This document shows positions 1,815 to 56,218 of a stretch of 64,000 nt of DNA, in pieces. Source of the DNA: an uncultured Acidobacteriota bacterium (GTDB lineage Bacteria > Actinomycetota > Acidimicrobiia > Spongiisociales > ZC4RG35); contig CAWKEI010000010.1 in the NCBI GenBank assembly GCA_963848695.1, positions 85,679 to 149,678 of the forward strand, written 5' to 3'. A model generated the notes under the pieces. The model was not told the DNA's origin and searched no databases. It saw nothing but the letters and a program-made list of their open reading frames with translations. The translations under genes and the position numbers were made by a program. Position 1 is the stretch's first letter, and each line of letters starts with the position of its first letter.

Positions 1815-2349
1815 TCAGCCGGTGACGACACCGGGCTCGATGTGGAAGACGGCATCCTCCTCCCATTGGACCGAGCCAGTCCACCAGAGGAAATTCGTCT
1901 TCCACTCGTGGTCGACGATGACCTTGACCCCAAGCCAGTCCCGGGCGGAGCCGCTGTCCACCCGCGAGGAGGAGGGCCAGCCATTCGCCGACAGGAACCA
2001 GGTGCCTGCCGCTGCATTCCAGACCTACCTCGTCCTCGTTCGCCGGGCGGTACACCTGGCGGCTCAGACCCACGGTGCCGTTCGCGTCCGATTCGTAGAT
2101 CCAAAGCTCTTCCACGGCATTGCCTGCCACCGCGTTGAGAGAGCCGGCCGCGGCCTCGATTATCCGGCAATCGGCCGTGGGCAGGTCCCCGGCTGCACTC
2201 CCGACACGGGCGGCTTCCCGCACGGCCGAGGTCATGGCGATGCGGTCGGCGAACCCGGTGCCCCATTCGTAGGCGCCGAGGGCGAGCATCAGCATGATCA
2301 CGATCGCCATGGCCAGCTCGATGGCGGCTGTGCCCCGATCCTTTCTCAT
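1815..2349 (-). CDS. TadE-like pseudopilin, cassette 1, apparent +1 frameshift near 2000
   Basis: N-terminus MRKDRGTAAIELAMAIVIMLMLALG (TadE-like). The C-terminus is readable only in another frame (DWLGVKVIVDHEWKTNFLWWTGSVQWEEDAVFHIEPGVVTG*). That frame matches the C-termini of the paralogs at 7371-7928 and 10218-10757. Confidence 0.5.
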
Positions 2350-3849
2350 GGCGCCGGTTCTTCGGTGATGGGGTTGGGGATCAGTCGGACCGGGTTCCCG
2401 ATGACCCGGGCCCGCCAGGTGGTTCGCTCGTTGGGCTCGGAGAGGTCGAGATCCATATGCCAGAAACATTGGAGCTCGGCAGACTTCGACTCGTCACACA
2501 TCGCCTCCGGGTCGTCGGGAAGGTCGATGACAGCCACGATCCACTGATTGTTGAAGAGCTGGATGGTGGGTGGATCGGAGGTGACCCACGAGCAGCCCGA
2601 ACCGTTGCCCAACTCTGATGTCTGGTCGTGGTTCCACGCCGTCCACGTGCAGTCGGCAGGCATGTTCCCGAACGGGTCGCGGACACTCATCTGGGAGAAC
2701 CCCTGGGCGTCGCCGGCATCGAAGAACTCGAGCTCGAGCTTCTTCCCGGCGTGGTCTTCGCTGATCTCGGCCAGATAGAGCTGGGAGGCCGAGGTGAGGC
2801 GATTGGAGAAGATCGACATGTCGTTGATGCCGTAGACCTGGGGTTGGGGGCTGCTGCTGGTGGCGGCGGCGACGGAGTATTGATTCGACCCCGATCCCAC
2901 CCCGGACGACCAGACGTGGAGCATGTAGAGGCCTGGCGTCGGGCTCCCGATGCTGCAGAGCGTGCTCCAGGCGTTCTTCTGGGGCGAGCTCGACGGGTCC
3001 ACATTTGGGGTCAAGTCGAACGAGCACCCGCCTAGCGACGGATTGTCGGTGGGATCGGATGGTGAGGTGTCGACGTCGTGGAGCTGGAAATGGGTGGTGA
3101 CCCCCGGATTGCCGGCGCCACCGGGGTTGAAGCGGGCGTCGGCGCTCTCGATGTTCGGGTAATCGGGCCTCTCGTCGAATCTGGCGTCGTAGATCGAGAC
3201 AGTCAGATCCGATGCGCCGATCGGGACATCAACCGCGAAGTAATAGCCGTCATAACCCCCGGGCCCCCGGCTGAATGTCGGATTGCTCGAGGTGCACGAG
3301 GAGGCGCTGCTGTTGACGACACAGTTGGTCGAGTAGGGGTCCCCGTCCTCTTTCAGGGTGAACGGGGCCGACACCGCGCCCCAGAAATCGTTGATGTTGG
3401 CGGTGCAGAACCCCCCGGTCGGGTCCTGGCCGAAGCAGCGGTTCGGGCTGCCCAGGGGCACCGGCTTGACGTACTCGGCCGTCGCCTCCCGACTGATGTC
3501 GAAATGATCGAAGCCGAGCACCTTCAGGAAGAAGGTATCGACCTGCGTCTGCAGCTCGGCGTGCAGCCGATCCTCGTCGAGAGGTGTCACGATCAGGGTG
3601 TCGGCACCATCGGGGTCGTACCCGTTGGCCCGCGCCGCGTCTTCCGCATCCTCCTCGGCGAGGTTGGGGAAGCCGGGCAGATTCACCACTCCGGCCAGGG
3701 CGGCGGCATCGACGGCCTTCTGTGCCCGGGAAGTGTTGAGGAACAGCCATCCCAGATCGGTGCCGAACCCGGCCATTCCGATGAGCAAGACCAGGGTGAG
3801 GGCAAGCCAGACAAGGGTGATGCCCTCGTCTTTGGGTCGCTGCCTCATT
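2346..3849 (-). CDS. large TadG-like pilus protein, copy 1 (Tad N-terminal domain plus Cys-rich extracellular region)
   Basis: Begins MRQRPKDEGITLVWLALTLVLLIGMAGFGTDLGWLFLNTSRAQKAVDAAALAG, a TadE/G-like N-terminus. About 500 aa, many Cys. Its start overlaps the upstream tadE stop (ATGA). Confidence 0.65.
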
Positions 3850-4390
3850 CGAAGGCCTCCGGCTCGAGACGCTGCAGAGCGGTGCGGCTCACATTGATCG
3901 TCCCCCGCCACGGCGGAAACCCGGTCACCCACTGGTGGTCTTTGGCGATGGTCACGCCGAGGATGTCGAGACTCGTGGTTGCCCCGACGGTCACCTCGCG
4001 TGAGATGCTGGGCCAGTTCTCGGTGATCGACCAATCGGCCGGGTCGCAGGTGGTCGGGTCTCCGCTCGGGCGCAGAGCCCAGGTGTTGATCATCCCGGGC
4101 TCCGGCTCGCCGGATCCCTCATTGGCCTTGAAGATCTCGATGTCGACTTCACTGAGGTCACCGGGCCCGAAGGCGGCGACGATGCTCTGGATGATGTGAC
4201 AGTCGGCCTCGGGATCGTTGCCGGCCAATGAGCCAACCCGTGCCGCCTCCCGAGTCGTGAACGAGAGGGTGAGGAAGTCACGGAAGGCGAGCCCCAGTTC
4301 CAGGAGGCTGACCATCAGGAGGATGATGATCGGCAGTACCAGGGCGGCTTCGACCAGCGTTGCCCCGCTTTGCCCGTCCCTGCTTCCCAT
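3845..4390 (-). CDS. TadE-like pseudopilin
   Basis: N-terminus GATLVEAALVLPIIILLMVSLLELGLAFRDF. Overlaps the start of the downstream TadG-like gene, consistent with translational coupling. Confidence 0.7.
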   Translation of the reverse strand: MGSRDGQSGATLVEAALVLPIIILLMVSLLELGLAFRDFLTLSFTTREAARVGSLAGNDPEADCHIIQSIVAAFGPGDLSEVDIEIFKANEGSGEPEPGMINTWALRPSGDPTTCDPADWSITENWPSISREVTVGATTSLDILGVTIAKDHQWVTGFPPWRGTINVSRTALQRLEPEAFE

Positions 4391-4514
4391 AGATGCCCCC
4401 GTCGCGCGGTGAGCCCTTCGCTGCCACCCGGCGCCATTATCCCGTTGTCCCGAAGGGGACGCCAGGGGACTCCTGTGGAAAACCTGAAAGGACTACTCGA
4501 GCGCGATGTGTCGG

Positions 4515-4898
4515 TCAGTACTCCACGTCGAGCTCGGACACTGCCGAGCTCCACTGCTGGATTGCCCCCTGATGCATCATCAGCTTGGCCAGGTTCCCCG
4601 ACACCTTCAGCTTGCCCGTCATGAAGGCCGTCTGGGTGTTGAGCTCGCCCTTCGAGATGGCAGTGGCGGTGTCGTAGGTCTGCTTCACCGTCACGTCGGC
4701 GCCTTCAAGACTGCCGAGGGCCATCGTGGCGTTACCGCCACCGGCTTGGAGGTAGTAGTCGACCTCACCGTCCGGGGCGTCGGTGGTGTTGAACTGGATG
4801 CCCAACTCGGCCTCGCCGATGGCGTTCTTGAACCCCTGGTGGCCGTTGAGGGCCGAAGTGACCTCCGAGGCCCACTCGGCACTTAGAAACTTGGACAC
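4515..4898 (-). CDS. SCP-2 sterol-transfer domain protein
   Basis: 127 aa. C-terminal motif TAFMTGKLKVSGNLAKLMM is typical of the SCP2 fold. Confidence 0.65.
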   Translation of the reverse strand: MSKFLSAEWASEVTSALNGHQGFKNAIGEAELGIQFNTTDAPDGEVDYYLQAGGGNATMALGSLEGADVTVKQTYDTATAISKGELNTQTAFMTGKLKVSGNLAKLMMHQGAIQQWSSAVSELDVEY

Positions 4899-4980
4899 GC
4901 ACAGACTCCTTGGTGATTGGGGGGCCGAATGGTACAGGCCGACGCAATCATTGAGGAAAGGGCGATTCAGCCCGTTTGGC

Positions 4981-5832
4981 TCAGATCAGCTTGGCGATCG
5001 AGGTCTCGGCGCCCCTGGAGAGACGGGTCAAGGGCTCGCGCGGGTGCCCGGCGTCGAGCCCGGCCGCCTTTGCCGCCGCTTTGACCCCGGGCACGCCATG
5101 GGCTTCGACGTCGGAACTGATCGCGCTGAGACGCTTCTGCAGCTTCCTCGCCTTGGCCGGATCGGCCTTGGCGGCGGCCAGGGTCTGCAGCACCAACTCG
5201 GGGACGTAGTTGCCCGATCCTGTGATCGCCCCGTGACAACCCACGGCCATCGCCGCGGTCAGGGCCCGCGACGAGCCCGAGTAGAGGATGAACTCGGACG
5301 GCGAAGCGTCGATGATGGACTGGAGTCTGACGACGTCTCCGCTCGAGTCCTTCATTCCCACCACGTTCTTGTGCCGGGACAGCCTCCACACCAGCTCTAC
5401 CGGGAGGTTGTAGGCGGTCACGCCGGGTACCGAGTACAGGAAGACCGGCACTGTCGAGGTCTCGGCGATGGTCAGATAGAAACGGAGGACTGCATCGTCC
5501 CTTCCCCGGGTCATGGTGGTGGGGGTCATCACCAGCACAGTGTCTGCGCCACCTTCGACTGCCTCCTCGATCTGGTTGATCGCGACGCGAGTCGACTCGG
5601 CCGCGATGCCAACCATGAAATGAGCCTTGCGACGGCGCCCGGCCTTGACCAGGCGATACCGCTCACCCGGTTCCAGATACGGCCCCTCCCCGTTGGAGCC
5701 ACCGATGACGAAGCCGTCGATCCCGGCATTGGAGAGAAGGCGGAGATTGGTGGTGTGAGCCCTGGTGTCGATCTCCCCGCCCCGGGTGAACGGCGTGATC
5801 AACGCGGGCATGTACTCGGGTGGTGGCAGCAC
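4981..5832 (-). CDS. dihydrodipicolinate synthase / N-acetylneuraminate lyase family aldolase
   Basis: 283 aa. Segments ALITPF, GFVIGGSNGE and a conserved Lys region (NVVGMKDSSGD) indicate a DHDPS-family TIM barrel. Exact substrate not assignable. Confidence 0.75.
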   Translation of the reverse strand: MLPPPEYMPALITPFTRGGEIDTRAHTTNLRLLSNAGIDGFVIGGSNGEGPYLEPGERYRLVKAGRRRKAHFMVGIAAESTRVAINQIEEAVEGGADTVLVMTPTTMTRGRDDAVLRFYLTIAETSTVPVFLYSVPGVTAYNLPVELVWRLSRHKNVVGMKDSSGDVVRLQSIIDASPSEFILYSGSSRALTAAMAVGCHGAITGSGNYVPELVLQTLAAAKADPAKARKLQKRLSAISSDVEAHGVPGVKAAAKAAGLDAGHPREPLTRLSRGAETSIAKLI

Positions 5833-5860
5833 CGGGGAAGATTAGGAGGACCGAGCGTGG

Positions 5861-7374
5861 TCAGTCGATGAGGTGGATCGGGTTCCCGATCATGTAGGCA
5901 CGCCAGGTGGTGGTGTCGTTCACCGCCGTCGGATAGGCGTAGCTCATCTTCCACCAGCAGTTGGTGCACGAGTACGCCGCAGGTAGATCCATCTCGAACT
6001 TGAGCCAGCGCCCGTTGTACTCACCGGGGGTCACCGTCTCCTGACAGTTTGAGCCACTGGGGATGGTCTGTTGCAGGTTCCAGGCCACGGTCGGGTTGTT
6101 GCGGCTGTAGATCCGGCACTGGCCGTCGTTGAAGACCGCTGGTCGAGGGATCGACCACGGCAAGGGTCCCATTGGCGGCGGACTCGCCGGCGTCGTACAA
6201 CTCCACAACGAAGGTCTTCCCGTGGTAGTAGGTGGGCACTTCTGCCAGGTAGAAGGAGGTTGTGGTGCCGCTGGCGTTGTTGTAGATCGAGAAGTCACCG
6301 AGGGCGAACAGCTTGGCCCCGTTGTTGGTCGCTCTGACCGAGTAACGATTCAGACCGGCGCGGTCGACCGTGGTGCCGGGGTCTTGCACTGCGATCTGGA
6401 GGACATAGATCCCGGCTGCCGGATGGGTCCAGCAGGAGGCCGGAGAGTCCAGTGGCGTTGGCGGCGTTGCCCAGTTGTAGGCGGCGGCGGGCAGCACCTG
6501 CCCGGTGGGGGTGAGGGTGGCCGTGCACAAGGGGGCGGCATTGTCGGAGAGGTCGAGTGGGGTGGGGTCCGGGGCGTAGAGCTTGACCAGCATGGTCGGC
6601 CCACAGGTGGCGGCGGCGCTCGGGGTCCAGTCCTCGCATCCACGGTCACCGGTGCGGATGGTGTCACTGGTGGGATTGCCCCCGGAAGTGTTGAAGAATC
6701 TGAGATCGATTCCCTGGATCGTGAAGGGCCCGGTCCCCCTCTCGATTCCGTAGAGATAGCCGCCCGGTCGGGCGATCGGGTTCGCGGTGCAGGTGGGGAC
6801 ATCCGAGGCTCCCACGCAGTGCGAGGTGTAGGCATCACCCATGCCGGTGTCGGTGAACCATCCATGGATGTTGGCCCAGAAGTTGGGCTGCCCGGAAGGG
6901 CAGCCGGTCTGAGCCCGGGGCGCAGCCGTTGCCGAAGTCGCCGGCTGGACTCCCCAATTTCAAAGGCGGTATGTACTCGGCGATCGCCGATCGCTCGATT
7001 TCCATCGTGTCGACCCCGAGGACACTGAGGAAGAAGGTGGGCACGACGTCACTGACGGAGACTTCGAGTTGGTTCTGTTCCCCGGTCACGACGGCGGGCG
7101 AAACCGCGATGTCGGGTGCGCTGTTGTCGTACCCGTTCTGCAGTGCGACGGCTTGCGCCGTCGAGATGGCGGTGCCGGAGGCGCCGGGGAGCCAGACCAC
7201 CCCTCCGAGGGCGGCGGCATCGGCGGCGCGCTGCACTCGGCTCGCGTTGAGGTAGAACCAGGCGAGATCGGTGCCAAATGCGGCCATTCCGAGCAGGACC
7301 ACCATCGACATCGCCACCAGGACCATGGCCGCGCCCCGGTCGTTGTCACGAGCCCTCTCGATCAACTTCCTCAC
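5861..7374 (-). pseudogene. large TadG-like pilus protein, copy 2, split into three frames (two apparent 1-nt frameshifts)
   Basis: ORFs 6835-7374, 6021-6842 and 5861-6298 are collinear with the intact paralogs. Junctions lie at about 6860-6880 (ccccggg run) and about 6150. Confidence 0.55.
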
Positions 7375-7928
7375 TGGGTGCCCCTCGTGTCAGGCTCGAT
7401 CCGCATCACTGCGGTTTCCGTCCAGTTGACCGTCGGGAACGGAAAGAACCCGGTGAGGTCGGTATGCGAGAAGGTGATCTCCACGCCGAGCGAGTCGAAG
7501 GTCGGCGGTACCCGATCCCGGGTAGATGGGGCCCATGGACAGCCGTTGTCGCATCCGAGGTTGGTGGCGGCGCTGTCACAGGCAAGAGCGGCTGTTGGGG
7601 AATAGACGTTGACCGCTCCGGACATCGGGTTCCCTGCCGAATCCGCCTTGAAGATCCGGACTTCCTCGAGGTCACCAAAATTGAGGTTGCAGGCCGATTC
7701 CTCGACGGCGGCGAGGATCAGGTCATCGGCATCGGTGCCGGTGACGGTGTCGTTGAAATTCGCCGCAGCTGCCCCGGTCCGGGCCCCTTCACGGGCCGAG
7801 TTGCTGACCGTGAGATAGTCGACCACCAAGAACCCGACCTCGGAGAGGCCGATGGCGAGCAGGATCAGCATGGGGAGGAGGATCGAGGCCTCGACGAGGC
7901 TGGCGCCCTTCTCGAGTCGTCGTCTCAT
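7371..7928 (-). CDS. TadE-like pseudopilin (cassette 2, gene a)
   Basis: MRRRLEKGASLVEASILLPMLILLAIGLSEVGF, C-terminal GCDNGCPW Cys motif. ATGA overlaps with both neighbours. Confidence 0.7.
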   Translation of the reverse strand: MRRRLEKGASLVEASILLPMLILLAIGLSEVGFLVVDYLTVSNSAREGARTGAAAANFNDTVTGTDADDLILAAVEESACNLNFGDLEEVRIFKADSAGNPMSGAVNVYSPTAALACDSAATNLGCDNGCPWAPSTRDRVPPTFDSLGVEITFSHTDLTGFFPFPTVNWTETAVMRIEPDTRGTQ

Positions 7929-8512
7929 GATGAGCCGAACACCTGTGGCTCGACCTGGAAGTCGGTGGAACTGGTGAAGTCGGTGGACGGGGTGAAATAG
8001 CTGGTGAGCCACTGGTGGGTGAAGTCGACCTCGACCCCGACTCGGTCCGTCGTGGGCGCCTCCACGTCTCGGTCGGAAGGATCCCATACGGGAGTCACGT
8101 AGTTGGTGCGGAAAGGTTCAGGGCACGGCGACCAGTCACAGCACCCCGGGAGGGCGGGAAGGACCGTGCTGGAGCAGCCGGTGCCGGGGGCGTAGGAATA
8201 GGTGGTCGACTCGCCGGAAGGTGCTGCTTCATAGATGCGTGCACTCATCCCGGCGGAGATGCCGGCCGGATTCAGGGTTTGCTCGATGTCGCGGAGAATC
8301 TGGATGTCGGCCCGCGGGTCGTCGCCGTAGGTCGCTCCGGCTCGGGCACCCTCACGGGCGGCGTGGCTGACGGAGAGCCAGTCCTTGAAGGCGAGCCCGA
8401 ACTCGACGATTGCGAACAACGAGAGGAAAAGAAGGCCGTACACGATCGAAGCCTCGAGGAGCGTTGACCCGCGTTCGCGAGAACGATCTGTGCCGCTCTG
8501 GTTGCCCCTCAT
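7925..8512 (-). CDS. TadE-like pseudopilin (cassette 2, gene b)
   Basis: MRGNQSGTDRSRERGSTLLEASIVYGLLFLSLFAIVEFGLAF, C-terminal GCCDWSPCPEPF motif. Confidence 0.7.
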   Translation of the reverse strand: MRGNQSGTDRSRERGSTLLEASIVYGLLFLSLFAIVEFGLAFKDWLSVSHAAREGARAGATYGDDPRADIQILRDIEQTLNPAGISAGMSARIYEAAPSGESTTYSYAPGTGCSSTVLPALPGCCDWSPCPEPFRTNYVTPVWDPSDRDVEAPTTDRVGVEVDFTHQWLTSYFTPSTDFTSSTDFQVEPQVFGSS

Positions 8513-8723
8513 GTTCACTGCTTTCACGTCTTTCCACCCACCGAGCACGCTGCCTCGTCGAGGTGATGCTGATCGAATGCTCATCGACCAGGGTTCTTCG
8601 GCAGAAAGGGCCAACTACTTGAAGCAGAAATTGCCGATCGGGGCCGATTCGGGTCGATCGGCCCAGCCGGTGACCCTGAGTGGGCATTCGTGACCGAGGG
8701 TGTTCAGATTGGGGCGATTGCCG

Positions 8724-10221
8724 TTATTCGACCAGATGGATCGGATTGCCGATCATGTAGGCCCGCCAGGTGGTGGTGTCGTTCACCGGCGACGTGTAGA
8801 CGTAGTTCATCTTCCACCAGCAGCCAGGAATACCTCCCGCGACGCAGGCATACTCGGGGGGCAGCTCCATCTCGAACTTGAGCCAGCGACGGTGGTACTC
8901 CTGCGGGGTGACCAGCTCCTGACAATCACTTCCGGCGGGGACGACCTGCTGCAAGTTCCAGTTCGGGCTGGTGTGGCTCCGCTCGTAGATGCGGCACTCC
9001 CCGTCATTGAACGTGTTGCCACTCGGGTCCTTGACCTGGAGGGTGCCGTTGGCCGACTGACTCACCGGCGTCGTAGAGCTCGATTACGAAAGTCTTGCCG
9101 TGGTAGTAGGTCGGGACCTCGGCCAGATAGAACGAGGTGACCGAGCCGCTGAAGTTGTTGTAGATGGAGAAGTCGCCGAGGGCGAACAGGTTGCCGGTCG
9201 AGGACCTCACTGAGTACCTGTTGAGACCCGATCGGTCGACAACCGCGCCGGGGTCGACGTGGCGAATCTCCACCACGTAGATGCCGGTGCCGGACTGGGT
9301 CCAGCACCCCTGGCCGTCCGGGGCAGTGAACGCGTACGGGTCGGTCTCCAGTCCCTGGGGGAGGGGTGGGATCGTGGCCTGGCAAAGGAGAGGGTTGTCC
9401 GAGACTTTCAGTGGTGTCGGGTCCGGCGCGTAGAGCGCCACATACATCGACGGCCCGCAGTCTGGCGCCGGGTTCGGGCCCCAGTCCTCACATCCCCGGT
9501 CGCCGGTGCGTACCCCATCGTTGGTCGGGTTGCCTCCGGACTGGTTGTGGAAGGCCAGGTCGTTGAACTGGAGAGTGAAGCTCGACGTCGATTCGATGCC
9601 GTAGAGATAACCCGTGCTTCGGGCGGTGGCGTTCTGAGCACACCCAGGGGCGTCGTTGGCGTTGTCGCACCACGACGAGTAGGCGTCGCCCATGCCTCGG
9701 TCGGTCCATTTCCCATGGATGTTCGCCCAGAAGTTGGCCTGCCCGGTGCACCCTGGCTGTTCCGGGTCACATGTGTTTCCGAACTGGTTCTCCGGGCTGC
9801 CCAGCCTCAGTGGGGGGATGTATTCGGCCACCGCTGTCCGCGAGATCGCCATCGTGTCGAAGCCGAGGACTTTGGCGAAGAACGTGGGGACCACGTCCCG
9901 AATGGTCACCTCTAGCTTGTTCGGCTCACCGGGCACGGCGGCCGGGACCACATCGACGTCGGTGAGGGTGTCGTCGTACCCGTTACGCGTGGCGATGTCC
10001 AGGGCGGTGGCGTCGGCAGTGCCTGGCTCGGCGGGGAGCCAGATGACACCACCGAGGGCGGCGGCGTCGGCAGCCCGCTGCATTCGGCTGGCGTTGAGGT
10101 AGAACCAGGCGAGGTCGGTCCCGAACGCGGCCATTCCCATCAACAGCACCAGCGAGCCGGCCACCAATGCCAGCGCGGCCCCGCGGTCGTCCTCTTTCGC
10201 CCGCCGGAAGATCCGTCTCAC
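8724..10221 (-). pseudogene. large TadG-like pilus protein, copy 3, one apparent frameshift near 9040-9065
   Basis: ORF 9004-10221 (N-terminal 405 aa) and ORF 8724-9065 (C-terminal 113 aa) overlap. Together they are collinear with copies 1 and 2. Conserved C-terminal tail WRAYMIGNPIHL. Confidence 0.55.
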
Positions 10222-10757
10222 TGGGTTCCCCTGGTGTCGGGCTCGATCTGCATCACCGCGGTCTCGTCCCAGTCGACGGTGGGGAACGGGAAGATCCCGG
10301 TGACGCTGGTGTGGGAGAAGGTGACTTCGACACCGAGGACGTCGAGACCCGGAGGCTCACGGTCGCGTCCGGCGGCAGCCCAGGGACAAGTGTTGTCGCA
10401 GTTGAGGGAGTTACCAGGGGCGTCGCAGGTCAGGCTTCCGCTCGGCGAGTACTCGTTGATCGACCCGACGATGGGCTGCCCGGTCCCATCGGCTTGAAAG
10501 ATCCTCACCTTCTCCAGAGTCCCGAACCGGAGGTTGCACGACGCCTCCTCGACCGCGTCGAGGATGATCTCGTCGGCGGTGGGAAAGTTGGCAGCCGCGG
10601 CGCCGGTGCGGGCCCCCTCTCTGGCCGCATTGGTGACGGTCATGTAGTCGACGACCAGGAACCCGATCTCCGAGAGACCGATCGCGAGCGTGATCAGGAT
10701 GGGGAGGATGAGACCAACCTCCACGAGCGAAGCTCCGCTCTCGCCCCGGCGCCTCAT
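10218..10757 (-). CDS. TadE-like pseudopilin (cassette 3, gene a)
   Basis: MRRRGESGASLVEVGLILPILITLAIGLSEIGF. Paralog of 7371-7928. Confidence 0.7.
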   Translation of the reverse strand: MRRRGESGASLVEVGLILPILITLAIGLSEIGFLVVDYMTVTNAAREGARTGAAAANFPTADEIILDAVEEASCNLRFGTLEKVRIFQADGTGQPIVGSINEYSPSGSLTCDAPGNSLNCDNTCPWAAAGRDREPPGLDVLGVEVTFSHTSVTGIFPFPTVDWDETAVMQIEPDTRGTQ

Positions 10758-11332
10758 GATTCGAACACCTGGGGCTCGATCTGGAAATCGGTGACGGTGC
10801 TGAAGTCGCTCGATGGGACGAAATACCCCGTGAGCCACTGATGGGTGAACACCACCTCGACTCCGATGCGGTCGAGATCGGGGGCCCGCACATCACGGCT
10901 CGAGGGATCCCAGCCCGGCACGGCGTAGGTGTCCCGGAACGGCTCGGGGCACGGCGTCCAGTCACAACAGCCGGTGAGGGGTGGCACCCCAACGGGTGTG
11001 TTGCTGGTGCAGTCGCTGCCCGGCGCGTAGGAGTAGTCCTCCCCGATTCCTGGGGATTCGCCGTTGAAGATGCGCACATCTATCCCGTTGGCGATCCCGG
11101 CCGGAGCCAGTGTCGCCTCGACGTCGCGGAGGATCTGGATGTCGGCGGTCGGGTCATCACCATATGTGGCTCCTGCCCTGGCCCCTTCCCGGGCAGCATG
11201 GCTCACCGACAGCCAGTCCTTGAAGGCGAGACCCAACTCGACGACCGCAAAGAGGGCGAGGAAGAGCAGGGCGTAGACCATTGCCGCCTCGACGAGGGTG
11301 GCCCCTCGCTCGTCACGTCTTCCAGTTGTCAT
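10754..11332 (-). CDS. TadE-like pseudopilin (cassette 3, gene b)
   Basis: MTTGRRDERGATLVEAAMVYALLFLALFAVVELGLAF. Paralog of 7925-8512. Confidence 0.7.
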   Translation of the reverse strand: MTTGRRDERGATLVEAAMVYALLFLALFAVVELGLAFKDWLSVSHAAREGARAGATYGDDPTADIQILRDVEATLAPAGIANGIDVRIFNGESPGIGEDYSYAPGSDCTSNTPVGVPPLTGCCDWTPCPEPFRDTYAVPGWDPSSRDVRAPDLDRIGVEVVFTHQWLTGYFVPSSDFSTVTDFQIEPQVFES

Positions 11333-15321: not shown

Positions 15322-15363
15322 CACGTACTTGGTACCTGGTACCTGGTACCAGGTATTCGGTAC

Positions 15364-19178: not shown

Positions 19179-20057
19179 CTATTGCTCGGCCATCTGGGAG
19201 AGTCGTTCGCTGCTGATCCGGACCTCGACACCGAGCTCGTGCTCGGCACCCCCGTGGTAGACGCCACGCAAAGGCATCACATCCTGATAGTCCCGGCCGT
19301 GGCCGATCTTGACATGCAGCTCACCGACAGGCTGGGCATTGGTGGGGTCGAGGGCCCACCAGCCGTAGCCGGGAATGAAGACCTCGATCCAGGCGTGGGT
19401 CTGAACGCTGAGCTCGGGCTGGTCTGGGGCCACGGCCGCTGTCTGGTCGGCGGCATATAGATAGCCGGACACGTAGCGGGCCGGGATTCCAACGCTTCGA
19501 TACATGGCGATGCCGAGATGGGCGAAGTCCTGACAGACCCCTTTGCCCTGAGTCAGCACGTCGCCGACGTCCATCCCCACGTACGTGGCCCCCGGAACGT
19601 AAGCGAGCTGGGAGGTGACGGTATCCGAGACGGTTGTCGCCACCTCGACCATGCCGTCGGATCGCCCGAGCGCTTCTCGAGCAATCGCCTCGATCTCGCC
19701 GTCCCAGGCGGCATGTGGCGAAGGCCGGAGATAGGTCGACAATTCGCCGCGCACCGTGTCCAACGAGTCAATGGGCGCGTCGTCCTCAGGGAACGTGGGT
19801 GCGCTGGTCTCGACCGTCGACTCTGCCCTGACCCTGAGCAATTCGTGCGGTTGGACGATCCCGAATTCGTCTACCCGCGTCCCCCAGTAGTCGGTGTAGG
19901 TGTGAACCTGAGTCACCGGGTCCACGTCGACCCGATAGCTCACCAGCCGCTGGTTCTCGGTGCTCGCCGGGCATGCCCTGAGCAGATTGTGCGACTCCCA
20001 CGCCGGCTCGCTGTAGTTGAACTCGTTCAGGTAGCGGATCTCGAGCCTCATGCCCAC
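19179..20057 (-). CDS. transglutaminase family protein (N-terminal bacterial TGase-like domain plus Cys-protease core)
   Basis: GKGVCQDFAHLGIAMYRSVGIPARYVSGY and HAWIEVFIPGYGWWALDPTN form the Cys-His-Asp transglutaminase core. Confidence 0.8.
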   Translation of the reverse strand: MGMRLEIRYLNEFNYSEPAWESHNLLRACPASTENQRLVSYRVDVDPVTQVHTYTDYWGTRVDEFGIVQPHELLRVRAESTVETSAPTFPEDDAPIDSLDTVRGELSTYLRPSPHAAWDGEIEAIAREALGRSDGMVEVATTVSDTVTSQLAYVPGATYVGMDVGDVLTQGKGVCQDFAHLGIAMYRSVGIPARYVSGYLYAADQTAAVAPDQPELSVQTHAWIEVFIPGYGWWALDPTNAQPVGELHVKIGHGRDYQDVMPLRGVYHGGAEHELGVEVRISSERLSQMAEQ

Positions 20058-24245: not shown

Positions 24246-24906
24246 ATGGCGAGGGAAGCGGGCACCTCGGCACCGACCTCCAGGTCGGCTCGGTATCGAC
24301 CGTCGCTATCGCACATTGCCATCGCTCTGGCGGCCATTCTCGCCTTCTCACTCAACTACCTCGCGTTGCAGAATCGGGATGCCACCACCTTGGTGGCGAT
24401 CGCCGATGGCCCGATTTCCGAGGGCGCCCCGCTGTCGGCGAACCTGATTCGGCTCGTCCCGCTGCCCGCAGATTTCGAGGGTCTCCAACATCTCGTCAGT
24501 GAGGACGATCTTCCGAACCTGGAAGGCTGGATAGTCGGTCGATCCATCGCAGAAGGGGAGTTGATCGACAGGACGATCGTGATCGAGCCTGGATCGGGCA
24601 GCGGTCTCCCGCGCGATGAGCATCCCCGTGCCGTCGGAGCATGCGGCAGGCGCCACCCTGGTCGCCGGAGATCGGGTGGACGTGATCTCGATGGTCGGGG
24701 AGCAACCTCAATTCGTCGCCTCGGATCTGGAAGTGGTCAGCATCGCGGACACGACACAGGACGGGCTCTCCGGGATTTCTCCGTATCACGTGGTAGTGGC
24801 GGTGTCTCCTGAGGAAGCCCTCGCCCTAGCGAGGGCCATCTCCGAAGGATCGCTGGAGATCCTTCGTGCCACTGGTGCCCGGGCTCTAGACGAGGTGGGC
24901 GAGTGA
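24246..24906 (+). CDS. cpaB: Flp pilus assembly protein CpaB/RcpC, apparent 1-nt frameshift near 24605
   Basis: N-terminal TM plus SAF-like region (IAIALAAILAFSLNYL...VPLPADF) in one frame. C-terminal RAMSIPVPSEHAAGATLVAGDRVDVI in another. Junction in tctcccgcgcg. Confidence 0.6.
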
Positions 24907-26003
24907 AGCCCGGGCCGGAACTTGCCCTGGCCGCCTCGGCGCGAGCTTGGCCCGACCGTGTGCATCGCTTCTTGTTGGACCACGGCGGAGGCAGAGTTCG
25001 GTCACGGGTCATGGGGCCCGACCAGGCCGTGAGTGATCGGTACGACATCCTCTTCATCGATGATGTCTGCTCCTTCCTCACCCCACGCCTCGTCAGGAGA
25101 ATCCGGGATCTGGGTCGAGAGATCGTGGGCGTATACGACCCTGCCGATGCCCCTGACGCCAAGCGCCATCTCCTCGAATGCGGGATCACTGACGTGATCG
25201 AGGAGGGTGCGGCTCCCGAGGAGTTCATGGCCGTGGCCGAAATGATGCTTCTTCACCGAAGCGACCCATCGCCAATTGTCACGCCGGCACTTCGGTCCTT
25301 CCGCGTAGGTGTGCTTGGGCCCGTAGGCGGCGTGGGTTGCACCGAGATCGCCACAGGCATCGCGGCGGTCATGTCTCGTTCCCGACCGACAGTGTTGATC
25401 GACCTCGACCAGCAGGCGCCCTCGGTGGCGCAGCGTCTCGATCTCCCTCTCCACCCGAACCTTCTGACGGCGGTGGATGCGGCCCATCACTCGGTTGGTG
25501 CAGTCAATGAAGCCATCTTGAGTCATGAGGCTGTCGACGTGATCGGTGGGCTGGTCAACCCTGTCACCACTCAAGACCTGCCACCGATCGAGATCGAGGC
25601 CGTGCTCGATGAGGTCGGCGCCGCCGGGTATGAGGTCGTCATCGCGGATCTGGGGACCGCTCGATTGGATCGCTTGGACTTCGTCCGCTTCCACGTCCTG
25701 ATCGTCGTCGGTCAGGCCAACCCGGTGGGGATGGCAAGGCTGGTGCGGACCGTCAACGATCTCTCCTCGAACTCCGACATGACCGACACTGTTGCCGTGG
25801 TCAACCGGGTCGCACCCGGGAGCCGGCGCCGCCTGGAGATCAGGGCCGAGATGGCCCGGCTGCTCCCAGGTATGCCCGTCGTCCTGTTACCGGAGGACGG
25901 ACGTTTGGAGAGAGCCTCGTGGGATGGCACTCGCCCATCACGAGGAGGTTTCGCCAGGGCGATCACGCGTGTCGCCTTGTTGATCGATGAGGCGGTCCGG
26001 TGA
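24903..26003 (+). CDS. tadZ: CpaE/TadZ-like pilus localisation protein with atypical ParA/MinD ATPase domain
   Basis: N-terminal receiver-like domain followed by a MinD-like domain. The P-loop is degenerate, GPVGGVGCTEIA, where canonical KGGVGKT has Lys replaced by Cys. Confidence 0.7.
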   Translation: MKPGPELALAASARAWPDRVHRFLLDHGGGRVRSRVMGPDQAVSDRYDILFIDDVCSFLTPRLVRRIRDLGREIVGVYDPADAPDAKRHLLECGITDVIEEGAAPEEFMAVAEMMLLHRSDPSPIVTPALRSFRVGVLGPVGGVGCTEIATGIAAVMSRSRPTVLIDLDQQAPSVAQRLDLPLHPNLLTAVDAAHHSVGAVNEAILSHEAVDVIGGLVNPVTTQDLPPIEIEAVLDEVGAAGYEVVIADLGTARLDRLDFVRFHVLIVVGQANPVGMARLVRTVNDLSSNSDMTDTVAVVNRVAPGSRRRLEIRAEMARLLPGMPVVLLPEDGRLERASWDGTRPSRGGFARAITRVALLIDEAVR

Positions 26004-27271
26004 CGGTCGATGCCTATCGGGAGATCAGGAAGCGGGCCCTCGAGCGGATCGATGGCTCGGGGCTCGATCCCCAACGCGACACGGCCCGGCTGGTGGAACT
26101 GCTGCGGTCGACCGTGGATGACTACCAACGTCACGCCCACATGGGCGAGTCCAGGTCTTTGGCCGATCCCGACGCGACCGTGCGTCGTCTCCTCCAGTCG
26201 GTTTCGTACTACGGCCCATTGGGAGATCTCCTCGACCGGGATGACATCGAGGAGATATTCATAGAGGGTGACAGAGTCACCTACCTGGAGGCAGGAGGCT
26301 CGTTGCGCGGGCTAGACGTTCCCAGTTCCGAGGCCGAGAACCGCCAGGTCGTGGAGAGGTTGATGGCGGCAACCGATCGGCGGCTCGATGCATCACACCC
26401 TGTGTCACAAGCGCGGATCCTCGACGGGTCAGCTCGGCTCACGGCTGTGATCCCTCCGGTGGCGGACCATCTCTCGGCGACGATCCGTCGATACGCGCTC
26501 CGCCGCGAGACGCTCACCTCCCTGGTCGAATTGGGGTCGCTGACCAGGGGTTCCGCCGACTTCCTGACCCTTGCCATGCGCGCTTCGACGTCGGTGATCG
26601 TCAGCGGCCCACCTGGTGCGGGAAAGACCTCCTTTCTCTCGGCGCTCATCGCCGCCGTCCCATCCGATCACTGCGTCCGGGCGTGCGAGGAGATCCGTGA
26701 GCTCCACGTGCCGATCGTCCATGGGTCCTATTACGAGGCACGACCCCCCTCCCTCGACGGCGGCGGGGAGATAAGCCTGCGGCACCTGGTCAAGGCCACA
26801 CTCGCCATGAGGCCCGACCTCATCGTGGTTGGCGAGGTCCGTGGCAGCGAGGCCTTCGAGTTGACCAGGGCAGTCAATGCCGGCTGCGGTCTGGCGTGCA
26901 CCATTCACGCCAACTCGGCGCCCGACGCTCTGGATGCACTGGTGAACGCAGCTCTCATGGCAGGGGAGAACATCCCGGAGCGGGTCGTGCGAAAGGTTTT
27001 CTCTTCGTCGATCGACCTCGTGGTCCATCTGGAGCGTGACATCGATCCGAAGGAAGGAGGCATCCGCCGCCAGACCATGGAGATCCGGGCTCTGGTCCCC
27101 TCCCTTCACGACGACTTCTCATCCGAGCCGCTCTTTCAACGCGATCGGCTGGGGAGCCCGCTCGAGTGGACCGGCTCATTACCACCCGAGAGCTTGGGGC
27201 GGCGGCTGGAGCGAGCTCTGCCGCGAGGGGCAAATATCGCGGGGTTGTTGGAAGGTGGAGGGCAGTGGTAA
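26000..27271 (+). CDS. cpaF: Tad pilus assembly ATPase CpaF/TadA
   Basis: Walker A GPPGAGKTS, Walker B DLIVVGEVRG, His box. 423 aa, secretion-ATPase fold (type II/IV). Confidence 0.9.
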   Translation: MTVDAYREIRKRALERIDGSGLDPQRDTARLVELLRSTVDDYQRHAHMGESRSLADPDATVRRLLQSVSYYGPLGDLLDRDDIEEIFIEGDRVTYLEAGGSLRGLDVPSSEAENRQVVERLMAATDRRLDASHPVSQARILDGSARLTAVIPPVADHLSATIRRYALRRETLTSLVELGSLTRGSADFLTLAMRASTSVIVSGPPGAGKTSFLSALIAAVPSDHCVRACEEIRELHVPIVHGSYYEARPPSLDGGGEISLRHLVKATLAMRPDLIVVGEVRGSEAFELTRAVNAGCGLACTIHANSAPDALDALVNAALMAGENIPERVVRKVFSSSIDLVVHLERDIDPKEGGIRRQTMEIRALVPSLHDDFSSEPLFQRDRLGSPLEWTGSLPPESLGRRLERALPRGANIAGLLEGGGQW

Positions 27272-28131
27272 CGGCCCTTGCAGCCTTGTGCTCGGCCGTC
27301 GCCGTTGTGCTCGTGTTGAACAAGGTGATGGTTAGGGCAAAGGACCGCGGGAGGCCTCGGGTCCCAAAGGGGAATTGGCTCCGGGAATCCGGGCTCGACG
27401 TGACACCTGCTCAATTCTGGGTTGCTTCGATCGGCGCGGGCGTCGGCACCTACATCGTCGTATTCGCGTTGACCTCACTTCCGATTGTCTCGCTGATGCC
27501 ATCGGTAGTCGTCGCCACCCTGCCCAAGGCATATTTCTCCAGGAAGAGGGCTCAGCGGCTCGACGAAGTTCAACGCGCCTGGCCGGACGGGCTTCGGGAT
27601 CTCCTGGCGTCAGTTCGATCGGGAGCATCGCTGCCAACAGCGATGGAGAGCTTGGCGGATTTTGGCCCGGCGCCACTCCGACGGGCCTTTCAGGAATTCT
27701 CCGTCTATTCGCACAGTCTCGGAGTTGTTCCGGCCCTCGAGATGATCAAGTCAGACCTATCCGACCCCACTTCGGACCGGGTGATCGAGGTGCTGATCCT
27801 GGCCTATGAGCGTGGTGGAGCAGTGGTCCCCGAAATCCTCTCCGATTTGGCGGACGCGACCACTAAAGATCTCTGGACCCTCGAAGAGATTCGGACTGAT
27901 GCGCTGGAGCAGAAGATCAACTCGCGGATCGTGTTCATCCTGCCCTGGCTGGTCCTGGTGGCGTTGACGGCTCGGGCAGGGGCATTCCGCGAGTTCTACG
28001 CGTCTCGGGCCGGGGTGCTTGTCGCGGCAATTGGCGGCGTGATGAGTGTGGTCGGGGTGGTCATCGCCTCCAGGCTTGGTTCGCAACCGGCCGAGCCTCG
28101 CGTGTTCGTATCGGCTCGAGGTGGCGATTGA
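27265..28131 (+). CDS. tadB: Tad pilus inner-membrane platform protein TadB (T2SS F-domain)
   Basis: GTG overlaps the cpaF stop. Multiple TM helices plus GspF-like cytoplasmic domain. Confidence 0.75.
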   Translation: MVTALAALCSAVAVVLVLNKVMVRAKDRGRPRVPKGNWLRESGLDVTPAQFWVASIGAGVGTYIVVFALTSLPIVSLMPSVVVATLPKAYFSRKRAQRLDEVQRAWPDGLRDLLASVRSGASLPTAMESLADFGPAPLRRAFQEFSVYSHSLGVVPALEMIKSDLSDPTSDRVIEVLILAYERGGAVVPEILSDLADATTKDLWTLEEIRTDALEQKINSRIVFILPWLVLVALTARAGAFREFYASRAGVLVAAIGGVMSVVGVVIASRLGSQPAEPRVFVSARGGD

Positions 28132-29054
28132 CCATCACACCGTTGATGCTCGTCGCTGCGATCACTACTGCGTTTGCAGCTGCCTTGGTGGTTCATGCGC
28201 TGTTTCCGCCAGCTCGCAGTCTCGCCTCGAGGATCAACCCGTACGTCGGCCCGGCGAGGGTGGTTGCCAGGTCCCGATCTGTAACTGGCCCTCTCGGTGC
28301 CGTGTTCGGGCCGATTCTCCGCTCATTGGCCGCATCCGTGGGAAGGCTCTTGGAGAGATCTGGAGAGCAGGTGACGATCCTCCAGCTTCGACAAGCCGCT
28401 TGGTATCGGGATCTGCCTGAGGAGGAGACCGTGCCCGTCTTTCGGATGGCCCAACTGCGGTCGATCGCCATCGGTGTCGGGGTCGCGTTTCTCATCGGGC
28501 ATTTGCTGGGGCTGTCCCCGATCCAACGGATCGTGCTCGTCGCTCTTGGCATAGTGGTCGGGGCCACACGGCAGCGGGCGTCGTTGCACGCGGCGATCGA
28601 GCGGAGGCGGGAGAAGATGTGCATCGAGATCTACACGGTGAACCAACTTCTCGCCATGCGGGTCCGAGCCGGTGGTGGGGTTGTCCACGCGGTGCAGGAC
28701 GTCGTGCGTCGTGGTGAGGGAGAGGTCGTGAGCGAGCTCGCCGACGCCCTTCGGCTCCATAGGTCTGGGTGGCGGGCCGGTGACGCGTTTCGGAGGATGG
28801 CCGAGCTGACCCCTGAGCCGTTTTGTGGCCGTACCTATCGCCTGTTGGCGACCGCCGAGGAGCGCGGCGCCGACCTTGCCCCAGCACTCCTCGACCTCGC
28901 TGAGGACGTTCGGGAGACGCGACGTGAGACCCTGCGAAGGTCGGCGACCAAACGGAGAGCGGCGATGCTCGTGCCAACCATCGCCATCCTGGCCCCAGTC
29001 CTCCTCCTCTTTGTGGCGGCACCTCTTCCGTACCTGATAACCGGCTGGCGATGA
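28128..29054 (+). CDS. tadC: Tad pilus inner-membrane platform protein TadC (T2SS F-domain)
   Basis: Paralogous GspF-domain membrane protein directly after tadB. Confidence 0.75.
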   Translation: MTITPLMLVAAITTAFAAALVVHALFPPARSLASRINPYVGPARVVARSRSVTGPLGAVFGPILRSLAASVGRLLERSGEQVTILQLRQAAWYRDLPEEETVPVFRMAQLRSIAIGVGVAFLIGHLLGLSPIQRIVLVALGIVVGATRQRASLHAAIERRREKMCIEIYTVNQLLAMRVRAGGGVVHAVQDVVRRGEGEVVSELADALRLHRSGWRAGDAFRRMAELTPEPFCGRTYRLLATAEERGADLAPALLDLAEDVRETRRETLRRSATKRRAAMLVPTIAILAPVLLLFVAAPLPYLITGWR

Positions 29055-29066
29055 AAGGAGGTTGAC

Positions 29067-29246
29067 ATGCTGGCCCTCAAGCAGTGGTTCCACGACGTGT
29101 GGGGCGACGACCGGGGACTCAATACCGCCGAGCTCATGGGAAATGCCGCACTGGCGATTGCGGCTCTCGTAGTCATCTGGGGCGCACTCCAGGCGCTCGG
29201 TGTGGACATCGTCGGGTGGATCCGCTCTCAGCTCATCGGAGGCTGA
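29067..29246 (+). CDS. flp: Flp-family pilin (59 aa)
   Basis: Not in the ORF track. AGGAGG RBS 6 nt upstream. MLALKQWFHDVWGDDRG/LNTAELMGNAALAIAALVVIWGAL gives a leader, then G then xxxxE, then a hydrophobic helix (Flp prepilin architecture). Confidence 0.65.
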   Translation: MLALKQWFHDVWGDDRGLNTAELMGNAALAIAALVVIWGALQALGVDIVGWIRSQLIGG

Positions 29247-29608
29247 ACGACCGGGGCGTCACCTCGGTCCAGTTCCTCTTGGCCAGCGGGCTTGGACTGC
29301 TGCTCTTTCTCGCCCTGGCCAACCTCGTCGTAGTCGAATACGGGCGGGGCGCTCTCAGGTCCGCGCTCGATCAGGGCGCCCGGGTCGGATCGGTCAACTC
29401 GTCGGCGGAGGAATGCCAGCGGAGGATTGGTCAGGTCTTGGATCAATTGCTCGGAGGGAGGATGGGTGACACGGTGGTGACCGACTGTGTGATTGGGCCT
29501 GTCTCGGTCAGGGCCTCCGGACAAGGAGTCTTCTCCTCCTGGACTCCCCTGACGCCGGACTTCGTCGTCGAGATCACCGCTCAGGCCACACGGGAGCTCC
29601 CGCCGTGA
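29243..29608 (+). CDS. TadE-like pseudopilin
   Basis: NDRGVTSVQFLLASGLGLLLFLALANLVVVEY, the TadE-like N-terminal domain. Start codon uncertain (CTG or near-cognate just after the flp stop). Confidence 0.5.
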   Translation: MNDRGVTSVQFLLASGLGLLLFLALANLVVVEYGRGALRSALDQGARVGSVNSSAEECQRRIGQVLDQLLGGRMGDTVVTDCVIGPVSVRASGQGVFSSWTPLTPDFVVEITAQATRELPP

Positions 29609-30033
29609 TGGACCGCGGTCACGCCGCCGTCGAGCTCGGGTTGGCGGTCGGTCTTCTCCTCCTTCCCGTAGCCATTGCGGTGCTGGCGTTCGGGCCATGG
29701 TCAGAGCGACGGGTGTTCGCCGAGGCGGCCGCCGCGGAAGCGGCCCGAGCGGCGGTGATTCACCTGGATACATCTGCCGGTGCCTTGGTATTGGCGGAAA
29801 TGGCGGCCAATCACGGCCTCGGATCTGACCTGGTCCGTCTGGGTTGGTGCGGTGCCGGCGCGCAGGAAAAAGACGACAGGCCCGATTCTTGCTCCTTCGA
29901 GCGAGGGACCGAGGTGATCGCCGAGGTCGAAGTCTGGGTACCTCTCGTCGCAACGCCCTGGGGTGAGATCGGGGGTCTTTGGGTCGGAGCTACCCACTCC
30001 GAGCAAGTCGACCTGTACCGGAGCCTGCCGTGA
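29605..30033 (+). CDS. TadE-like pseudopilin
   Basis: DRGHAAVELGLAVGLLLLPVAIAVLAFG. Overlapping GTGATG start. Confidence 0.6.
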   Translation: MMDRGHAAVELGLAVGLLLLPVAIAVLAFGPWSERRVFAEAAAAEAARAAVIHLDTSAGALVLAEMAANHGLGSDLVRLGWCGAGAQEKDDRPDSCSFERGTEVIAEVEVWVPLVATPWGEIGGLWVGATHSEQVDLYRSLP

Positions 30034-30446
30034 GCTCGGACCGCGGCTCGGTCACATTGTGGACGCTGGGGCTCTCGATGCTGCTGCTTCTTTTTGGTGG
30101 GCTCGCGGTGGACTTCTGGCGGGCTCTCGCATTGCAGCGTGAGCTGGCGGCGATTGCCGATTCGGCCTCGGTGGCGGCCGCCTCGGGCATCGACGAGGAG
30201 CACTATCGGGACACCGGTGAGGTGGTCATCGATCCGGATCGCGCCGCCGACCTCGGCTCGGCGTATGCGGCATCACAGGATGTGGTCCTTTCGGCGTTGG
30301 TTGTGAGCACGTTTCCTGGAGGGGAATCGGTTTCGGTGCTTGTCGAAGGCCGTTTGGATTTGGGGCTGATCGGGGTGTTCGTCGATCAAAACGAGCCCGT
30401 CACGGTGCGAGCGGAGGCGACCGCCGAGCCCGTATTGGTCCCCTGA
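30030..30446 (+). CDS. TadG/TadE-like pseudopilin (small)
   Basis: DRGSVTLWTLGLSMLLLLFGGLAVDFWRA matches the N-terminal pattern of Tad pilus-assembly TadE/G-like proteins. Confidence 0.6.
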   Translation: MSSDRGSVTLWTLGLSMLLLLFGGLAVDFWRALALQRELAAIADSASVAAASGIDEEHYRDTGEVVIDPDRAADLGSAYAASQDVVLSALVVSTFPGGESVSVLVEGRLDLGLIGVFVDQNEPVTVRAEATAEPVLVP

Positions 30447-30618
30447 GGTCGACTTCGCACTGGACCTACTGTCGATTATCCTTAGCTCCTACCCTGCATC
30501 GCCTTCGGGTGTGCGCGTTCGGGGGTGGTGTAATAGGTAACACGGCAGGTTCTGGCCCTGTTATTGAGGGTTCGAGTCCTTCCCCCCGAGCCAGGCCGGC
30601 GATGAGCCGACCCAACCT

Positions 30619-40973: not shown

Positions 40974-41058
40974 GTTTCTAGCACGGGTGACAGAGAGAAA
41001 AGGAGGATGGCCCGACCGGTGTTCCAACCCAACCGAGCCTCCCTTATCGGCCCTTCCC

Positions 41059-56159: not shown

Positions 56160-56218
56160 GCAGCCGACCGACGGTAGAATCCGGAACATCCCCCACTAGG
56201 CAAGGGTTCTTCAAGGCG

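Follow-up and report, generated by a model that had tools for sequence, protein, structure and literature searches.

Three tandem cassettes of minor-pilin genes, each encoding two TadE/TadF-type proteins and one large TadG-like protein, lie on the minus strand of a 64,000-nucleotide stretch of an Acidimicrobiia genome (GenBank assembly GCA_963848695.1, contig CAWKEI010000010.1, positions 85,679 to 149,678; hereafter the window). Each cassette probably encodes the three subunits of a tip-initiation complex of a tight adherence (Tad, or type IVc) pilus, with the three sets serving as alternative tips. We favor this reading because the pairing of two TadE-like proteins that carry a glutamate at position 5 (Glu5) with a TadG-like protein that does not, together with the predicted layout of the large protein as a pilin module, an insert and a terminal strand, matches the patterns published for CpaL of Caulobacter crescentus and the Kil proteins of Myxococcus xanthus.

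In the mechanism that we propose, two TadE/TadF-type minor pilins with Glu5 would join one TadG/CpaL-type apical subunit lacking it in a heterotrimer at the pilus tip, by analogy with characterized pili. In the apical subunit, an N-terminal helix would anchor the protein in the membrane and be followed by a small pilin-like module, an insert of ~350 amino acids (aa) and a highly conserved final β-strand. The insert, disulfide-rich and predicted to form roughly two β-sandwich halves, would be exposed on top of the pilus, and the final strand (the WRAYMIGNPIHL tail) would fold back in cis, completing the pilin-like module's sheet and licensing filament assembly, by analogy with CpaL and GspK. 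The neighboring Tad machine, comprising TadZ, TadA, TadB and TadC with the Flp pilin and encoded 13 kb away, would polymerize the filament beneath whichever tip complex had formed. A cell could display up to three alternative tips, possibly differing in binding specificity, in addition to the small pseudopilins that the core tad operon encodes.

Gene content and subunit architecture of the cassettes

The three minus-strand cassettes comprise nine genes and run from 4390 to 1815 (cassette 1), from 8512 to 5861 (cassette 2) and from 11332 to 8724 (cassette 3), as a preliminary description made by reading this DNA had proposed. That description saw the same tadE-tadE-tadG unit three times, which holds for cassettes 2 and 3 (order E-E-G), whereas in cassette 1 the large gene sits in the middle (E-G-E), an arrangement it had overlooked. 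All six internal junctions are 4-nucleotide start-stop overlaps, ATGA or GTGA, in keeping with the translational coupling it suggested, and an SCP2 gene and a gene of the dihydrodipicolinate synthase (DHDPS) family are indeed the sole intervening non-Tad genes. On the same strand, the succinate dehydrogenase genes sdhA-sdhB precede the cassettes; a YCII gene follows them, and then mdh on the opposite strand. The family assignments were borne out by hidden Markov model (HMM) searches: all six small proteins match TadE (PF07811) at 33.5–44.4 bits, against a Pfam gathering cut-off of 22.9, and all three large proteins match Tad (PF13400) at 27.4–38.4 bits (cut-off 22.3), as do 46 of 46 members of the large-protein family.

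Reading the N termini reveals a G/xxxxE prepilin motif, with its putative cleavage site, in each of the six TadE-like proteins (G/ATLVE, G/ASLVE (twice), G/TAAIE, G/STLLE and G/ATLVE). Glu5 is absent from the three TadG-like proteins, where the corresponding residues are RG/AAMVLV, RG/AALALV and EG/ITLVWL.

Structure prediction, which the preliminary description had proposed for the large proteins, gives a putative pilin-like module, a β-rich insert and a conserved terminal strand. AlphaFold2 returned a confident model for the orthologue of the cassette 3 protein, TadG3, from an alignment of 46 sequences (pLDDT 85, pTM 0.76) and a usable one for the cassette 1 protein, TadG1 (pLDDT 79, pTM 0.71), and the order of secondary-structure elements is identical in the two. 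An N-terminal helix of ~45–60 residues is followed by a short helix and three to four strands (residues ~60–142), a segment that matches Tad_C (PF09977) weakly (E ≤ 0.05) in 45 of 46 family members. The next ~350 residues are modeled as β-structure that divides approximately into two halves and closes with two strands, which span residues 480–490 and 494–497 in the TadG3 orthologue. The β region resembles generic sandwiches and jelly-rolls, namely the carbohydrate-binding modules CBM27 and CBM15, GOLD, protease C-terminal/PPC domains, HA70 and an Epf adhesin domain. Foldseek against the PDB reached template-modeling (TM) scores of ≤0.2 at best, with double-jelly-roll proteins (PHM, SIDT1 and PNGase F); these matches are a hint of the fold class as predicted, not of homology. 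A profile search of PDB sequences with the distal region gave zero matches at E ≤ 1. No Pfam or NCBIfam family covers residues ~143–498, the only NCBIfam match being a sub-threshold, N-terminal TadE-like one, and a von Willebrand factor A (vWA) domain with a MIDAS (an adhesion site that depends on a metal ion) was looked for in the inserts of the TadG-like proteins and is not present. The earlier statement that the C-terminal domain has no assigned function therefore holds for the databases, but not for the conserved tail, since the corresponding strand in the analogue CpaL has a role that was shown experimentally.

The large proteins contain even numbers of cysteines (12, 12 and 10). Eight of 12 are kept in 44–45 of the 45 type-A sequences aligned and the other four in 36–39, and their even number and conservation, judged from the sequences, fit an exported, disulfide-bonded protein. 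The best-conserved blocks of the family are the tail (residues 481–498, mean identity 0.88) and the helix (residues 41–60, 0.85), and the least conserved is a loop region at ~281–320. A close relative of the window, hereafter L001 (CAWILU010000006.1, a 659-kb contig of a metagenome-assembled genome (MAG) from Microflora Danica), was found by protein search with the repaired TadG3. It is 96% identical to the window in nucleotides over 20 kb, with the same gene order, and all nine of its cassette genes are intact. Differences between the two strains gather in the same loop, at residues 310–319 plus a 5-aa indel in the cassette 2 protein, TadG2, and at residues 312 and 319 in TadG3. The TadG2 stretch at 6417–6461 has a cluster of small indels relative to L001 (net +15 nucleotides) and most of the amino acid differences, and it looks like the code for a surface loop in the distal region that varies between strains. 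With four extra bases removed from the window, as described below, the ratio of nonsynonymous to synonymous substitution rates (dN/dS) relative to L001 is 0–0.12 for the nine genes, compared with 0.05 for sdhA and sdhB, at a dS of 0.05–0.20.

Cassettes 2 and 3 are homologous over their full length and colinear, with 70.8% identity over 2.6 kb in blastn (E = 1e-132). In global alignment, TadG2 and TadG3 share 65% and the TadE pairs 68–69% of their amino acids (63–68% for these cassette 2/3 pairs in BLASTP). Identity at third codon positions stays flat at ~0.5–0.6 along all three gene pairs, and its low level (0.50–0.55) argues for an old duplication, as the preliminary description had concluded. 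The stretch it called near-identical, compared here as 5861–5930 versus 8724–8793, matches at 60 of 70 nucleotides, or 86%, and on its sequence is the conserved tail rather than the trace of a recent exchange. Gene conversion between cassettes 2 and 3 was considered and ruled out, as the flat third-position identity leaves no tract of recent exchange. TadG1 is more distant, at 33% identity to TadG2 and TadG3 over ~520 aa, their full length (E = 1e-69), and the six TadE-like proteins are homologous across their whole ~180 aa, beyond the N-terminal helix. The cysteine motifs and tail that had been described as common to all copies are so only in part: GDRGCEDW and CGP occur in TadG2 and TadG3 but not in TadG1, and the tail WRAYMIGNPIHL of the former two is replaced in TadG1 by the related WRARVIGNPVRL.

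A chromosomal site with variable cassette content

The large subunit belongs to a widely distributed family. A profile search of 1.84 billion representative proteins, clustered at 50% identity, yielded 1,016 clusters with E ≤ 1e-30, or 4,180 with the looser limit of E ≤ 1e-10, and the best 150 matches listed are mostly full length. Among GTDB species representatives, at least 402 loci came to light, of which the best 80 are almost all titled Acidimicrobiia and include a homologous cassette in the cultured Aquihabitans sp. McL0605 (NZ_CP188252.1, near 4.13 Mb). Relatives of the large protein are already named 'TadG family pilus assembly protein' by the annotation pipeline PGAP.

Searches by tblastn with the nine proteins and flanking genes place the cassettes at a conserved site with the order sdhB-[1–2 cassettes]-DHDPS-SCP2-[0–1 cassette]-(YCII)-mdh. 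Among 31 species-level loci with full flanks, ~12 hold one cassette, ~15 two and 4 three, and the arrays are intact. Units of the E-E-G type number ~20 in these loci, including two fused EEGEGE strings, and those of the E-G-E type ~14. In a neighbor-joining tree of 114 TadG-like proteins we distinguish four relevant lineages, namely those of TadG3 and of TadG2 and two with E-G-E units, one of which contains TadG1, and combinations of the four differ between genomes. Rather than a single copy or decayed extras, the pattern that the preliminary description had set against its own proposal, relatives carry one to three cassettes here, in arrays that are intact.

Two further observations concern these loci. 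Several Microflora Danica MAG records with the Acidimicrobiia-type locus (L002, L005, L006, L010, L015, L016 and L018 in our numbering) are titled 'uncultured Acidobacteriota bacterium', which looks like a labeling error. In addition, a WhiB gene lies next to the locus in L001/L002; with the titles of nearly all related records, it assigns the organism to the Acidimicrobiia (Actinomycetota), the few records that are titled differently being mostly Acidobacteriota.

Tip complexes in other bacteria and alternative readings

The closest precedent is found in Myxococcus xanthus, where Herrou et al. (2025) described four paralogous KilL/KilM/KilN (TadE/F/G-like) Tip clusters that are genetically interchangeable on one Tad filament (PMC12075869). 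The distal domain of KilN has no PDB homologue and many disulfides, and the authors report the KilLMN families to be restricted to Myxococcota (PMC12075869). As with Kil Tips 1–4, several paralogous three-gene TadE/F/G-like clusters occur per genome, some unlinked to the core tad genes, and the large subunit has a Cys-rich distal domain without a PDB homologue, a likeness to KilN that is one of description only. The two systems differ in that the Kil host is a diderm predator whose tips are tied to a needleless type III secretion system (T3SS) and prey killing, whereas the host here is a monoderm member of the Acidimicrobiia, and in that the cassettes here are tandem at one conserved chromosomal site, come in two gene orders and have an all-β distal region. 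A T3SS is not expected in a monoderm, and no T3SS-like genes were noticed among the window genes, part of which were scanned. We suggest that the cassettes work like the Kil Tips, although membership of the KilLMN families is unlikely.

The domain layout finds its counterpart in CpaL. In type IV filament initiation complexes the apical subunit, PilK or GspK, lacks Glu5, and TadG/CpaL has that role in Tad pili (PMC13533445). Piliation requires the extreme C-terminal strand of CpaL, which completes the sheet of the protein's own N-terminal pilin module, whereas the middle region of ~470 residues is a dispensable adhesin insert (PMC13533445); CpaJ-CpaK-CpaL has been modeled at the pilus tip (PMC12607857). 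Like the C. crescentus set, each cassette pairs two small partners with a large subunit of similar size (~500–600 aa) that lacks Glu5 and is predicted to be built from an N-terminal pilin module, a big insert and an extreme C-terminal β-strand. Unlike CpaL, the TadG-like proteins here are without a vWA domain, which, with its MIDAS, is present in many proteobacterial TadG proteins. A similar priming arrangement is seen in GspI-GspJ-GspK of the type II secretion system (T2SS) and in PilV/W/X-PilY1 of type IVa pili (T4aP), where a trimer of minor pilins both caps and primes the filament, Glu5 is missing from the apical subunit and a terminal β-strand locks the complex (PMC13533445). These complexes have no detectable sequence relationship to the cassettes, and the T4aP adhesin (PilY1/PilC) is not an insert in a pilin but a separate protein that is no pilin itself. 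The gene order of cassettes 2 and 3 is that of tadE-tadF-tadG in Aggregatibacter actinomycetemcomitans, which define the Pfam TadE and Tad N-terminal families and encode two proteins of ~190 aa and one of ~500–560 aa, sizes similar to those found here. In that species they form a single copy ending the core flp-tad operon, whereas here they are detached, triplicated and accompanied by the core operon's own small pseudopilin trio. The proposal in the preliminary description that these are minor pilins or tip subunits gains support from the protein families, the Glu5 pattern, the domain layout and the Myxococcus Tip precedent.

Several points weigh against this reading. The distal region is not hypervariable, its conservation being close to that of the remaining protein, and the case for different specificities comes solely from the 33–65% divergence between paralogues. 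The core operon has three small pseudopilins of its own, and assembly may not require the large cassettes, or these may work for a different filament. We saw no prepilin peptidase in the window when open reading frame (ORF) translations were inspected by eye, without an HMM scan. Finally, four of the ten frame breaks detected in the window fall within the 15% of it that the cassettes occupy, a marginal excess (binomial P ~0.05), and the breaks may have a biological component.

The alternative that survives best, which we nevertheless consider unlikely, is that the cassettes encode not pilus tips but membrane-anchored surface proteins or a short, Flp-independent pseudopilus for the display of binding or enzymatic β-sandwiches, for DNA uptake or for secretion, comparable to the Tad-like competence of Micrococcus luteus. 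The cassettes are unlinked to a core operon that has its own small pseudopilins, they stand in a metabolic gene setting (sdh, DHDPS, SCP2 and mdh), and their fold matches include carbohydrate-binding modules and protease C-terminal domains; Flp-dependent transformation is known in Actinobacteria (PMC4322843). However, no catalytic family was matched in the Pfam and NCBIfam scans, and Myxococcus offers a documented case of one Tad machine served by unlinked tip clusters (PMC12075869). Two pilins with Glu5, a large one without it and a conserved terminal strand are, moreover, a combination specific to the initiation complexes of type IV filaments (PMC13533445).

A second alternative accepts the initiation complexes but regards them as redundant, differing mainly in the timing of their expression, so that the paralogy would be a regulatory back-up rather than adhesive diversification. 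The even conservation of the distal region, the topology shared by all paralogues and the sufficiency of one cassette in many relatives would all suit this idea. It is made improbable by the age of the paralogue lineages (33–65% identity, with synonymous sites saturated) and by the purifying selection that has kept each lineage across species, which would be unusual for pure redundancy. Strain differences also gather in one distal loop of TadG2 and TadG3 (residues ~310–319). Distinct promoters or regulatory RNAs were not detectable: a promoter and terminator scan gave no more signals than shuffled controls, and Rfam on the whole window returned three tRNAs, with no regulatory RNA or riboswitch near the cassettes.

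A third possibility arises from the frame breaks. In the window sequence as given, +1 shifts interrupt the gene for TadE1b (near 2007), that for TadG2 twice (near 6910 and 6140) and that for TadG3 (near 9056); the preliminary description had overlooked these four breaks and translated through them. Base-by-base comparison with L001 shows each to be a single extra base in the window. If real, the shifts would mean that the cassettes are decaying and that accessory Tad tip genes, and perhaps piliation as a whole, are gone or disappearing from this strain. Each cassette has at least one break, cpaB of the core operon is broken too, and the density of breaks in the cassettes is ~3.8 times that elsewhere in the window. 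Furthermore, homopolymer runs are the classic site of sequencing error, and none of the four insertions lies in one. We nonetheless find decay very improbable. Downstream of each break the correct frame is conserved (dN/dS 0.015–0.10, with the relative at a dS of 0.1–0.2), which leaves room for inactivation only if it was extremely recent and came about in four independent events. The same defect affects genes for pyruvate phosphate dikinase (PPDK), MeaB and CofC and, twice, a DsbA-like gene, giving at least 10 frame breaks in the 64 kb, and long-read MAGs of the clade, many of them from Microflora Danica, give split hits in mdh, DHDPS and tadG. No frame-changing indels were found in the other ~10 kb of genes aligned between the window and L001. 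The enrichment in the cassettes is marginal, and breaks elsewhere were sought by a codon-usage scan of the entire window, which is less sensitive because the L001 reference covers the window only up to 20.3 kb.

The four cassette breaks are thus almost certainly consensus errors of the assembly, as judged from the intact L001 genes, the low dN/dS, the same type of break in unrelated genes and the split genes in other MAGs. A break in a housekeeping gene such as that for PPDK likewise indicates consensus indel errors, and the Microflora Danica project used Nanopore sequencing (PMC12313526). With ~1 indel error per 6 kb, apparent pseudogenes in the window are not to be trusted at face value. The antigenic diversification that the preliminary description had also raised finds no support, and diversifying selection was rejected, with all nine genes under strong purifying selection comparable to that on sdhAB, conservation even along the protein and paralogue lineages that are old and stable.

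Genes around the cassettes and implications for Tad tips

A complete core tad operon lies on the plus strand at 24246..30446 (family scans: RcpC, CbiA/ParA, T2SSE and two T2SSF), and the 12.9 kb measured between it and the cassettes matches the separation of ~13 kb noted earlier. It presumably assembles the filament. The window contains four minor-pilin trios, one small set within this operon and three large sets outside it. Coordinates of the cassettes, the core operon and the other genes with frame breaks are collected in Table 1.

Table 1. Cassette genes, core tad operon and other genes with frame breaks in the window
Feature	Position	Strand	Details
tadE-like 3a, first gene of cassette 3	10754..11332	-	192 aa; G/ATLVE prepilin motif; 4 Cys; PF07811 E=1.3e-10; L001 orthologue intact, 99% identical
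tadE/tadF-like 3b	10218..10757	-	179 aa; overlaps 3a (ATGA) and TadG3 (GTGA); PF07811 E=1.8e-11
tadG-like 3 (TadG3)	8724..10221	-	498 aa after removing 1 extra base near 9056; PF13400; putative apical large minor pilin with predicted β-sandwich insert; orthologue 498 aa, intact, 99%
tadE-like 2a, first gene of cassette 2	7925..8512	-	195 aa; PF07811 E=1.3e-9; 68% identical to 3a
tadE/tadF-like 2b	7371..7928	-	185 aa; 66% (BLASTP), 69% (global) identical to 3b
tadG-like 2 (TadG2)	5861..7374	-	503 aa after removing extra bases near 6910 and 6140; L001 orthologue 498 aa, intact
DHDPS-family gene, between cassettes 2 and 1	5832-4981	-	
SCP2 gene, between cassettes 2 and 1	4898-4515	-	
tadE-like 1a, first gene of cassette 1	3845..4390	-	181 aa; PF07811 E=2e-9
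tadG-like 1 (TadG1), middle gene of cassette 1	2346..3848	-	500 aa, intact
tadE-like 1b (TadE1b), last gene of cassette 1	1815..2349	-	177 aa after removing 1 extra base near 2007; L001 orthologue 177 aa, intact
cpaB/rcpC, core tad operon	24246-24906	+	+1 shift near 24590-24610; joined protein matches Pfam RcpC, E=6.7e-9
tadZ-like (ParA-like)	24903-26003	+	
tadA/cpaF	26000-27271	+	
tadB	27166-28131	+	
tadC	28128-29054	+	
Flp-like pilin	29067-29246	+	59 aa
Three small pseudopilins	29243-29608, 29608-30033, 30030-30446	+	121-141 aa; last has Tad PF13400 N terminus
DsbA/FrnE-like gene	31396-32310	+	two compensating shifts ~31935 and ~31990 (~60 nt apart); correct reading 'LADLAAEVRLDRADVMQ' in another frame between them
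CofC-like gene	~40380-40976	-	-1 shift near 40600
MeaB/ArgK-like GTPase	~56204-57287	+	+1 shift near 56770
PPDK	57295-59935	-	+1 shift near 58470-58500 (~58480); '...GMGKPAVTGAAKLQVDSG' runs into '...IRRGDIITIDG'

Other features of the window stand apart from the cassettes. Directly 3' of the core operon are two tRNA genes (30519–30590 and 30619–30691, plus strand), followed by a gene for an HNH endonuclease with zinc-finger-like repeats (30732–31469, minus strand), a region that may be a small mobile or integration-associated element. Between ABC transporter genes and the tad operon lies a minus-strand trio (19182–22418) of transglutaminase-core, Alpha-E and a 478-aa ORF (20982–22418), the first two named from the Pfam annotation of their L001 orthologues; our guess from its sequence is that the ORF encodes a circularly permuted ATP-grasp protein. 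The intergenic interval 15327–15346 is a GGTACCA-type tandem run ('GGTACCAGGTACCAGGTACCAAGTAC'), in place of which L001 has a shorter, unrelated spacer.

Among the papers searched, none mentions both Acidimicrobiia and TadG, and the Myxococcus paper makes no mention of Actinobacteria (PMC12075869). What is new here is the host group, the family of β-sandwich inserts, the E-G-E variant and the cassette site with its variable content; the cassettes extend a design described in other bacteria and are not a new kind of system. Tad pili are widespread attachment organelles, and the construction and specialization of their tips were clarified only in 2025–2026, through the Myxococcus Tips and strand addition in Caulobacter CpaL. 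If the cassettes do encode alternative tip-initiation complexes, the modular-tip design would also operate in soil Actinomycetota of a class that is abundant and almost uncultured. The family of putative large tip subunits is big (~1,000 clusters), and its distal region falls outside Pfam and NCBIfam. Its diverged paralogues provide a natural set for testing the model of C-terminal strand addition, and the cassette content of each genome would give a handle on what these bacteria adhere to.

More tentatively, the site between sdhB and mdh may be a swappable tip repertoire. A single Tad pilus could there gain substrate-specific adhesive heads, perhaps glycan-binding, built on an unclassified double β-sandwich fold, and attachment would be decided by which cassettes a genome carries, one to three in number and drawn from four ancient lineages. 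We put this forward as a possibility, on the doubtful side. Were it true, a multi-tip Tad system would for the first time be found outside predatory diderms, and for the first time in Actinomycetota.

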